Shown here piece by piece: positions 46,345-47,097 of a DNA stretch of 64,000 nt. The notes beneath the pieces are model-generated. The model saw nothing but the letters and a program-made list of their open reading frames with translations. It did no database searches and was not told where the DNA came from. Numbering within the stretch: the stretch's first letter is position 1; each line of letters opens with the position of its first letter. The position numbers were made by a program, and so were the translations under genes. The DNA is from Amphiscolops sp. MND2022 (Eukaryota), in NCBI GenBank assembly GCA_964187785.1, contig OZ076409.1:186001-250000 (forward strand), written 5' to 3'.

Positions 46345-47097
46345 TTAAGTTGAAAGGGGGGCATACAGGGTATTTATGACTTTTACTTCGAAAAATATGG
46401 AATTGTTTTTTAGCCAGGGGTTCTCTGGGTTCATGAGTTCATCATGTGGGATGAAGCACAAGATGGTGATTGCTGTGTTGCTGGCTGTGGGAATAGGTTT
46501 CTTGAAACACTCACTGTTATTGTTATTCGTCACAATGAGCTGTTTGTAGGGTTTGTAAATATTGCCTTGACCAAGGAGGTGTATCTCGATAACGCCTTGG
46601 AAGGGCCAAGTGAGTATCTCATCGTAGGGTCCCGGACACATAGCCAAGCATACTGACATGTATTTCCCTTTGGCAGTGTCGATGCCATAAGGGTAAGCTC
46701 GTAGATGAAAGGTGTACCCAAAGGGTTGTGAGAAGAAGATAGGGCTACAGACGTCTTTTAGGCTATTAGGATCACAATAGGGTGCTCTTACATGAGACAA
46801 ACTTTTTTCGTATTTTTCAGCATTCTGAAAAATATCAGAAAATTGATCAAGCCTCCAAATAACTTTGTAGAGGTTCCAATCCCGTGGAATTGATTTCTTT
46901 TCGATACGAAGGACTCGCATCTCAAGTGCGTCGAGCTTTTTACTGATCTCGTGTATCATATCAGAATCAAATGTGTCATCTTTATATTGGGTGATATTGA
47001 GTTTTTGTCGAAGCAATAGTAACTCATTGATTAGGGAGTCCGTAAGGGACCTTTCATCTTCCAATTGTTCAATAAGGGTAAATGAGCTTGTGTTCAT
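46345..47097 (-). CDS. TRAF-like protein: coiled coil + MATH/TRAF-C domain, no RING or zinc fingers (250 aa)
   Basis: VIWRL..F, SPIFFSQPFGYTFHLRAYPYG, GKYMSV, GPYDEILTWPF, FKKP, FIPHDEL, NNSIFFEVKV are the canonical TRAF-C motifs; heptad-rich N-terminus. Confidence 0.92.
   Translation of the reverse strand: MNTSSFTLIEQLEDERSLTDSLINELLLLRQKLNITQYKDDTFDSDMIHEISKKLDALEMRVLRIEKKSIPRDWNLYKVIWRLDQFSDIFQNAEKYEKSLSHVRAPYCDPNSLKDVCSPIFFSQPFGYTFHLRAYPYGIDTAKGKYMSVCLAMCPGPYDEILTWPFQGVIEIHLLGQGNIYKPYKQLIVTNNNNSECFKKPIPTASNTAITILCFIPHDELMNPENPWLKNNSIFFEVKVINTLYAPLST

Follow-up and report, generated by a model that had tools for sequence, protein, structure and literature searches.

Accessory genes that counter host defences are known from vertebrate retroviruses. 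To our knowledge, almost nothing comparable has been documented for the endogenous retroviruses of invertebrates, beyond sightings of individual domains in the giant elements of planarians. An open reading frame (ORF) in a 64,000-nucleotide stretch of contig OZ076409.1 from Amphiscolops sp. MND2022 (the whole of which is referred to here as the window) raises the question of whether an invertebrate retroelement has acquired such a gene, since it codes for a TRAF-like protein and lies immediately ahead of a long terminal repeat (LTR). The original prediction, made from the sequence of the window, was that this frame represents a host TRAF gene captured by the element and used as a dominant-negative decoy to damp innate-immune or death signalling. 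We consider below whether the frame is a gene of the element, where it is likely to have come from, and what its product might do.

A TRAF-like gene at the end of an envelope-bearing LTR element

The window, which has a G+C content of ~40%, contains a single pair of long direct repeats (44248-46322 and 61483-63557), which are 99.57% identical over 2075 bp and delimit an element of 19,310 bp. All of its genes lie on the minus strand, so that the list below, given in order of coordinates, runs from the 3' to the 5' end of the element:

44244..44247, minus strand: target-site duplication TTTT, downstream side (element orientation), in the flank past the 3' LTR
44248..46322, minus strand: 3' LTR of 2075 bp with TG..CA ends, the TG itself at 46321, from self-comparison of the window
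46322..46344, minus strand: 23-nt spacer between the stop of the TRAF-like ORF and the TG of the LTR, containing the purine-rich motif GGGTGAG
46345..47097, minus strand: TRAF-like accessory ORF, ATG to TAA, 250 aa, no internal stop; helical N-terminus at residues 3-68, TRAF-C/MATH domain at about residues 76-243, RING and TRAF zinc fingers absent
47134..47643, minus strand: ORF169, a conserved accessory ORF of 169 aa, with no Pfam family
47654..49762, minus strand: env, a 702-aa fusion glycoprotein with a C-terminal membrane anchor (PF24664 Monjiviricetes_fusion, E 1.4e-39)
49763..54468, minus strand: pol-env spacer of ~4.7 kb, with only short low-complexity frames
54469..60075, minus strand: stop-to-stop pol frame of 1868 codons, encoding protease, reverse transcriptase, RNase H and integrase in Ty3/gypsy order
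60045..61124, minus strand: gag-position frame of 359 codons, overlapping pol by 31 nt in a different frame
61463..61479, minus strand: primer-binding-site-like sequence starting with TGG, 3 nt past the 5' LTR
61483..63557, minus strand: 5' LTR, 2075 bp
63557..63560, minus strand: target-site duplication TTTT, upstream side, in the flank ahead of the 5' LTR

Together, the TG..CA LTRs, the target duplication, the primer-binding-like site and the order of protease, reverse transcriptase, RNase H and integrase identify this as a Ty3/gypsy (Metaviridae-type) element, and the fusion-glycoprotein gene downstream of pol, recognised by PF24664, marks it as one of the errantivirus-like gypsy elements that carry an envelope. 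The envelope is of the Monjiviricetes (chuvirus/rhabdovirus-like) type. Within pol, Pfam matches were found to RVT_1, RT_RNaseH_2, Integrase_H2C2 and rve, together with weaker matches to Asp_protease_2 and SH3_Tf2-1. A Pfam search of the 359-codon frame gave no match, and its position makes it a putative gag. Likewise, the pol-env spacer contained no Pfam match and no recognisable coding frame; it does harbour tandem repeats, with 76-nt units at 49878-50120 and 51/111-nt units at 51044-51595. Base 63557, listed both with the 5' LTR and with the upstream duplication, is common to the BLAST match and the 3' copy by chance.

The TRAF-like ORF is the final gene of this element, following env and ORF169 and preceding the 3' LTR, which is the accessory-gene position that had been claimed for it. 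The distance of 23 nt from its stop codon to the TG of the LTR is also exact, when the start of the 3' LTR is set at that TG (46321), and the GGGTGAG motif within this spacer is, by virtue of its position, a putative polypurine tract. The 250 codons read uninterrupted from ATG to TAA, with no intron. In a Pfam search, the product matched TRAF-mep_MATH (PF21355; residues 116-236, E 5.4e-22, 78.9 bits, cut-off 27.4) and MATH_2 (PF22486; residues 80-240, E 6.3e-22, 78.7 bits, cut-off 32), as expected for the TRAF-C domain originally described. At a threshold of E <= 0.1, the same search of the ORF found neither RING nor zf-TRAF and, because the frame begins just 36 nt past the stop of ORF169, there is no room for such domains upstream. 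Thus, the protein carries the TRAF-C/MATH profile of the TRAF family, with PDB matches to TRAF1, TRAF5, TRAF2 and TRAF3 at E ~1e-12, and lacks the N-terminal RING and TRAF-type zinc fingers of canonical TRAF2-6-type proteins. In these respects, and with N-terminal helices in an AlphaFold2 model, the original description of an intact, intronless and RING-less frame coding for a coiled coil and a TRAF-C domain has held up well.

Copies, synteny and purifying selection

Copies of the ORF were sought by a six-frame protein search of the element's own 1.07-Gb assembly, in which 150 of 514 candidates were scored, so that all counts are lower bounds. At least 152 matches to the TRAF-like ORF were found. 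Among the scored candidates, 33 of the 34 full-length matches at 98-100% identity were free of stops, as were 9 of the 13 matches at 82-88%, and below ~75% identity the majority were broken. At these upper two levels of identity, the frame is therefore open in most copies, rather than decayed, a point that the original prediction had named as one on which it could fail.

Since young copies, which differ by a dS of ~0.02, would be expected to be open with or without a function, the informative comparison is that between subfamilies. Subfamily A1 consists of the window and 29 further loci, and subfamily A2 of 8 loci, and the two are ~78.7% identical in DNA sequence, evenly, from env through to the LTR. 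Between them, the TRAF-like ORF differs by ~36 nonsynonymous and ~102 synonymous changes, giving a dN of 0.066, a dS of 1.45 and a dN/dS of ~0.045; as a dS of ~1.45 is close to saturation, this ratio is approximate, and the raw proportions (~0.06 versus ~0.60) yield ~0.10. In the same comparison, dN/dS was 0.12 for ORF169 and 0.017 for env. Within subfamilies, the ratio for the TRAF-like ORF was 0.13 (29 copies) and 0.19 (8 copies). Changes that accumulate after insertion should be neutral and bring the ratio to ~1, so these low values imply that most differences arose in replicating lineages under selection. The dN/dS comparison proposed alongside the original prediction thus came out in its favour, and we hold it very likely that the TRAF-like ORF is a gene of the element under selection.

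The neighbourhood of the ORF tells a similar story. The order env-ORF169-TRAF was kept in all 13 examined loci with a TRAF match 48-88% identical to the window ORF (L031-L043). Furthermore, a set of multi-copy TRAF matches at ~30% identity proved to represent a second element family, which we term family B to set it apart from the family of the window element, family A. The same gene order was kept in all four family B loci examined (L045, L046, L047 and L050), where identity to the window element is 60-63% for env, 42-45% for ORF169 and 27-31% for the TRAF-like protein, and where the TRAF ORF is 325-330 aa long in each case. Because identical neighbours recur in every related copy examined, the presence of the TRAF-like ORF here is far beyond chance; the env-ORF169-TRAF module is old, and its fixed composition suggests that the three genes work together. 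This synteny, seen in all examined copies, also ruled out a host gene trapped between unrelated LTRs.

Family B is itself abundant: of the 123 matches scored in a search with its TRAF-like protein (79-100% identity), 97 contained no stop, and the dN/dS of its TRAF ORF is 0.14-0.18. Synonymous distances differ between genes inside one pair of family B copies, which hints at recombination between lineages.

Origin among cellular RING-less TRAF-like genes

A candidate for a cellular relative of the ORF was found in the same assembly, on contig 3 (locus L044), where a frame coding for a MATH domain shares 42% identity with the window ORF and the 4.5 kb to each side contain no env. A 599-nt GT-AG intron joins this frame to a coiled-coil frame upstream, and another GT donor lies just beyond the MATH domain; at both intron positions the element ORFs are continuous. 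The coiled-coil frame has no second copy in the genome at high identity, the next matches being 37-48% identical, and the cellular gene is single-copy. The N-terminal motif of this cellular type is kept in the family B ORFs; the family A ORF is alignable from about residue 8, and the N-terminal part of the cellular type is missing from it.

A maximum-likelihood tree of 38 proteins was used to place these sequences, comprising five of family A type, three of family B, two non-LTR proteins from the same genome and 28 database proteins, the last of these being single-MATH proteins picked among 150 listed, with multi-MATH and fragmentary proteins excluded. The canonical TRAFs in the tree are likewise database proteins, rather than members of this genome's own repertoire. 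In this tree, the element proteins and cellular TRAF-like proteins are split together from the other TRAFs (support 99/97), family A forms a single clade (100/99), and family B joins the cellular TRAF-like proteins (98/96). The element ORFs thus lie inside a cellular TRAF-like group, as a tree with TRAFs had been expected to reveal and, with the intron-bearing cellular paralogue, this bears out the claim that the gene is derived from the host. An AU test disfavoured families A and B as one clade (p 0.019, with a log-likelihood lower by 10.6). Family A sits on a long branch in the tree, and the A + B group was defined post hoc, once the tree had been inspected. The gene may therefore have been captured once, long ago, and have diverged since, or it may have been captured again, or replaced, at the same position.

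We then compared the domain content of the two branches using Pfam. None of the 12 proteins tested from the TRAF-like group had a RING or zf-TRAF match, nine of these being unconnected with elements and three being element or element-like proteins (including a family B ORF and the family-A-like P0013), as against zf-TRAF matches in 8 of 8 tested canonical TRAFs; the database proteins tested are single-frame predictions, from which upstream exons may be missing. A genome-wide search for zf-TRAF gave a sole match, on contig 10, and none on contig 3. As the nearest cellular relatives tested are RING-less, the missing RING looks as if it was inherited from the donor, rather than being the product of a truncation within the element. 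Taken together, these comparisons point to a host TRAF-like gene, itself RING-less, as the probable donor by way of a processed mRNA, and we regard such an origin as likely.

This has consequences for the analogy on which the original prediction drew, namely that TRAF2 and TRAF6 stripped of their RING and zinc fingers act as dominant negatives. None of the nine relatives tested outside elements has a RING or zf-TRAF domain and, if the absence of the RING is inherited in this way, the dominant-negative argument is weakened: in a donor clade that appears natively RING-less, the lack of a RING would not by itself be a sign of dominant-negative action on TRAF signalling. Nor does the analogy fit the closest structural relatives, since the best PDB sequence matches were the TRAF domains of TRAF1, TRAF5, TRAF2 and TRAF3 (E 1e-12 to 5e-10), with TRAF4 (E ~7e-8) and TRAF6 (E ~2e-4) as weaker matches, TRAF6 not being among the best. 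A truncated TRAF2 or TRAF6 was ruled out by the PDB matches, the tree and the RING-less relatives.

The search for relatives was also extended beyond this genome. Of 78 metagenome loci with TRAF relatives, none had an env, pol or ORF169 match nearby, and these look like ordinary cellular TRAFs. In a collection of viral contigs, 49 pattern matches were found and none was confirmed as a relative of the TRAF-like ORF. Cellular RING-less TRAF-like genes include, for example, Drosophila Traf-like, which is not known to carry either RING or zinc fingers. A Drosophila gene of that name appears in the available text of bioRxiv 10.1101/2025.09.29.679213. Such cellular genes share with the element ORF its architecture (a long helical N-terminus followed by TRAF-C) and its clade in the tree; the contig-3 gene, however, has introns and is single-copy, whereas the element ORF is intronless, multi-copy, linked to env and, in family A, N-terminally shorter.

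Predicted structure and possible roles of the product

An AlphaFold2 model of the monomer, of moderate confidence (mean pLDDT 65.9), places helices at residues 3-37 and 45-68, followed by a beta-sandwich. In Foldseek searches, the top matches were the TRAF domains of TRAF3, TRAF1 and TRAF2, followed by those of TRAF5 and TRAF4 (E 2.5e-12 and above), and SPOP chains were also present among the fold matches. The predicted structure therefore has the form typical of the TRAF family, with a helical stalk ahead of an eight-stranded beta-sandwich. A model of three copies together scored 0.65, where the best of three controls reached 0.05; as solved TRAF trimers exist, this speaks for likeness and may reflect the prior exposure of the predictor to them. 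In these runs contact agreement was at least 28% and partner pLDDT at least 70. In calibration, 21 of 30 solved homo-pairs attained the mark used for the trimer score (17 of 29 for eukaryotes), and none of 23 single chains did so. Confident contacts in the trimer were found in the MATH domain only, with none in the N-terminal helices, so that the coiled coil itself is not supported by the three-copy model.

The surface through which TRAF domains bind receptors was examined by alignment to TRAF1, focusing on an Arg/Tyr pair, a serine cluster and an edge strand, which we take from the TRAF2-peptide literature to be the positions in contact with receptor peptides. The Arg/Tyr pair is matched by Arg133 and Tyr135; the serine cluster SSAS reads NSEC, and the edge strand ASGC reads AITI. 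In addition, the edge strand of the MATH domain differs among element lineages. Since both the serine cluster and the edge strand have been replaced, a canonical TRAF2-type docking site is probably not retained in the TRAF-like ORF, to judge from this alignment.

These observations are consistent with the following model. The TRAF-like ORF would belong, as a true accessory gene, to an envelope-bearing animal LTR element that is of Ty3/gypsy type and endogenous-retrovirus-like; it would descend from a host TRAF-like gene, by then already devoid of the RING and the TRAF zinc fingers, that had been copied in processed, intronless form; and it would have been retained by purifying selection on the element lineage, alongside env and the orphan ORF169. 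The predicted product, a coiled coil joined to a TRAF-C domain with no effector domain, would trimerise as cellular TRAFs do. In cells that express the element, the protein might occupy the docking sites of TRAF or TRAF-like adaptors, or enter their oligomers, in which case TRAF-dependent immune, stress (JNK) or death signalling would be re-routed or damped, to the benefit of the element.

Our confidence differs between the parts of this model. The data suggest that the element uses the TRAF-like protein to manipulate host cells, and we incline, by a modest margin, to seeing the protein as a trimeric adaptor mimic. For the chain as a whole, up to an adaptor mimic that acts on TRAF-type signalling, we judge the chances to be even. 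That the protein acts specifically as an inhibitory decoy of immune or death signalling, as originally inferred, is plausible, though less likely than not. A fuller scenario seems rather unlikely as it stands: here, an envelope-bearing gypsy-type lineage would long have carried a retroviral v-TRAF, selected in well over 150 copies and two families and possibly captured repeatedly, and the protein would serve as a trimeric decoy of a host RING-less adaptor, blunting antiviral or death signalling on the germline route.

Among the alternatives, the one that fares best is that the MATH domain serves replication rather than immunity, recruiting a host factor (a ubiquitin-system enzyme, a trafficking factor or a chromatin protein, for example) to particles, to env or to the pre-integration complex. 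A role in the replication cycle would fit both the strong constraint on the gene, of a similar sort to the constraint seen in env and ORF169, and its invariable inclusion in one module with these two genes. The changes at what we take to be the canonical receptor-peptide contact positions point the same way, as does the fact that non-TRAF MATH domains bind many unrelated substrates, with SPOP present among the fold matches. However, the closest relatives in sequence and fold are true TRAF domains and not SPOP, USP7 or meprin, the element ORFs fall within a clade of cellular TRAF-like adaptors, and the host partner of the MATH domain is a hypothetical one. We therefore consider such a recruitment role possible, if somewhat doubtful.

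A second alternative turns the decoy model around, in that the protein would nucleate TRAF-type signalling or cell death, for instance as an aid to particle release or spread. There is a viral precedent for this in the fish iridovirus ISKNV, whose ORF111L, in the available text of PMC3352826, is a TRAF with a RING that interacts with TRADD and sets off apoptosis dependent on caspase-8; in a structure search of viral proteins, the best named matches to the TRAF-like ORF were iridovirus TRAF proteins. By analogy, that a characterised viral TRAF activates apoptosis, rather than blocking it, may also be held against the decoy reading (available text of PMC3352826). Like the megalocytivirus TRAF (ORF111L and its homologues), the present ORF is a likely copy of a host TRAF-like gene with a coiled coil and a MATH domain; that protein, as far as the available source describes it, differs in being the product of a DNA-virus gene, in its N-terminal RING and in its pro-apoptotic action. 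ORF111L thus has a RING, and the present ORF has neither a RING nor any other effector domain. Furthermore, the killing of germline-associated cells would be expected to harm a vertically inherited element. Activation is for these reasons improbable. Least credible of all is a neutral passenger, a transduced host sequence riding without function in a recently amplified element: young copies with a dS of ~0.02 would indeed be open regardless of function, but a dN/dS of 0.045 between subfamilies whose synonymous sites are near saturation, within-subfamily ratios of 0.13-0.19, far under 1, and synteny that persists down to 27-31% protein identity all speak against it.

Returning to the element as the carrier of an adaptor mimic, we looked for parallels in the literature, where a search for TRAF genes in retroelements found a review of the planarian element Burro as the only relevant description. 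In the available text of that review (PMC6431247, Arkhipova and Yushenova 2019), Burro/GYPSM1 carries MATH_TRAF_C together with BIR, BCL2-like and ankyrin motifs in a giant ORF1, and a relative of Burro from Dugesia tigrina has MATH_TRAF_C in a separate upstream accessory ORF; the domain is thus part of a >4800-aa polyprotein, where it falls between gag and protease, or is encoded by an ORF further upstream. This text contains no analysis of selection on the domain. Burro resembles the present element, on this description, in being a gypsy-type LTR retroelement with MATH_TRAF_C and an env-like region. It differs in that the present MATH domain is encoded by a free-standing 250-aa 3' ORF after env, and in that the present env is of the Monjiviricetes class, rather than gypsy-F-like. 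No Pfam match to BIR, BCL2 or ankyrin was found in the gag, pol, ORF169 or pol-env spacer frames. A giant element of the Burro type was ruled out by the absence of these matches and by the different layout. The combination of gypsy-type pol with a chuvirus-like env has parallels of its own, as gypsy-type pol genes beside class III chuvirus-like glycoproteins are described in the available text of PMC13524379 (see also PMC7642597); in a word search of PMC13524379, neither TRAF nor MATH occurred. Retroelements with a TRAF-C domain were thus known before the present case, which differs in its free-standing 3' ORF after env, in the class of its envelope, in being traceable to a RING-less donor clade, and in the measurement of selection over two abundant families.

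With an immune-adaptor gene of likely host origin in a classical accessory position, clear selection and many young copies, the element offers a concrete, testable case of a retroelement that may target the TRAF pathway. It also lends itself to probing the RING-less TRAF-like proteins, a branch of the TRAF family that is poorly understood. In addition, the env-ORF169-TRAF module gives the orphan ORF169, for which neither Pfam nor Atlas searches returned a match, a context for study: in an alignment of family A with family B, its C-terminal ~70 residues are almost invariant.

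A second accessory gene beside the TRAF ORF

47134-47643, minus strand: ORF169, between env and the TRAF ORF

Immediately alongside the TRAF ORF (the RING-less TRAF-like gene of the window element) lies ORF169, which is a second accessory gene of this element lineage. Searches of Pfam and the Atlas with ORF169 returned no match. Its approximately 70 C-terminal residues are almost unchanged between element families in which env is only 60% identical, and we obtained a dN/dS of 0.12 for the gene.

Possible recombination and the accessory module in family B

L045-L047 and L050 (for example, contig 1 at 98.74 Mb), same genome: family B elements

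Elements of a second family, family B, carry env (711 aa), an ORF of 153 aa and a TRAF-like ORF, which at 325-330 aa is longer and whose N-terminal motif is still of the host type. Scored copies of this family number at least 123, and 97 of these are free of stops. Synonymous divergence was compared using L046, L047 and L050. Since dS is unequal among the genes of a single copy pair (L046/L047: env, 0.13; TRAF, 0.52; ORF, 0.75), this analysis suggests that in family B the accessory module has been shuffled between element lineages by recombination.

Further TRAF-like genes and multi-MATH proteins

L048 (contig 76) and L049 (contig 1 at 103.77 Mb): a further TRAF-like paralogue, 344-aa frame

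The end point of this 344-aa frame coincides with that of an exon of the contig-3 gene, an intron-bearing cellular TRAF-like paralogue. The flanks of L048 and L049 carry repeated, oppositely oriented ORFs of 197 and 209 aa, for which a Pfam scan gave no match; the two loci may represent another mobile or duplicated unit bearing a TRAF-like gene.

Among the best database matches listed, we also noted very large proteins (P0011, P0012, P0014 and others; up to 3052 aa), each possessing 5-13 tandem TRAF-type MATH domains.

Repeats, spacer and a fragment of another retroelement in the window

22860-32538: 51-bp tandem array, about 190 copies, 96% matches
49763-54468: pol-env spacer, about 4.7 kb
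3452-5535, plus strand: fragment of a separate retroelement

Because 51 is a multiple of three, the tandem array generates very long spurious open frames, together with spurious Pfam hits. The unusually long pol-env spacer, which contains two tandem-repeat blocks and is approximately 81% conserved between subfamilies, appears to be non-coding. The plus-strand fragment matches DUF5641 (E = 6.6e-27), a domain typical of BEL/Pao integrase ends, and has, in addition, a weak aspartyl-protease match.
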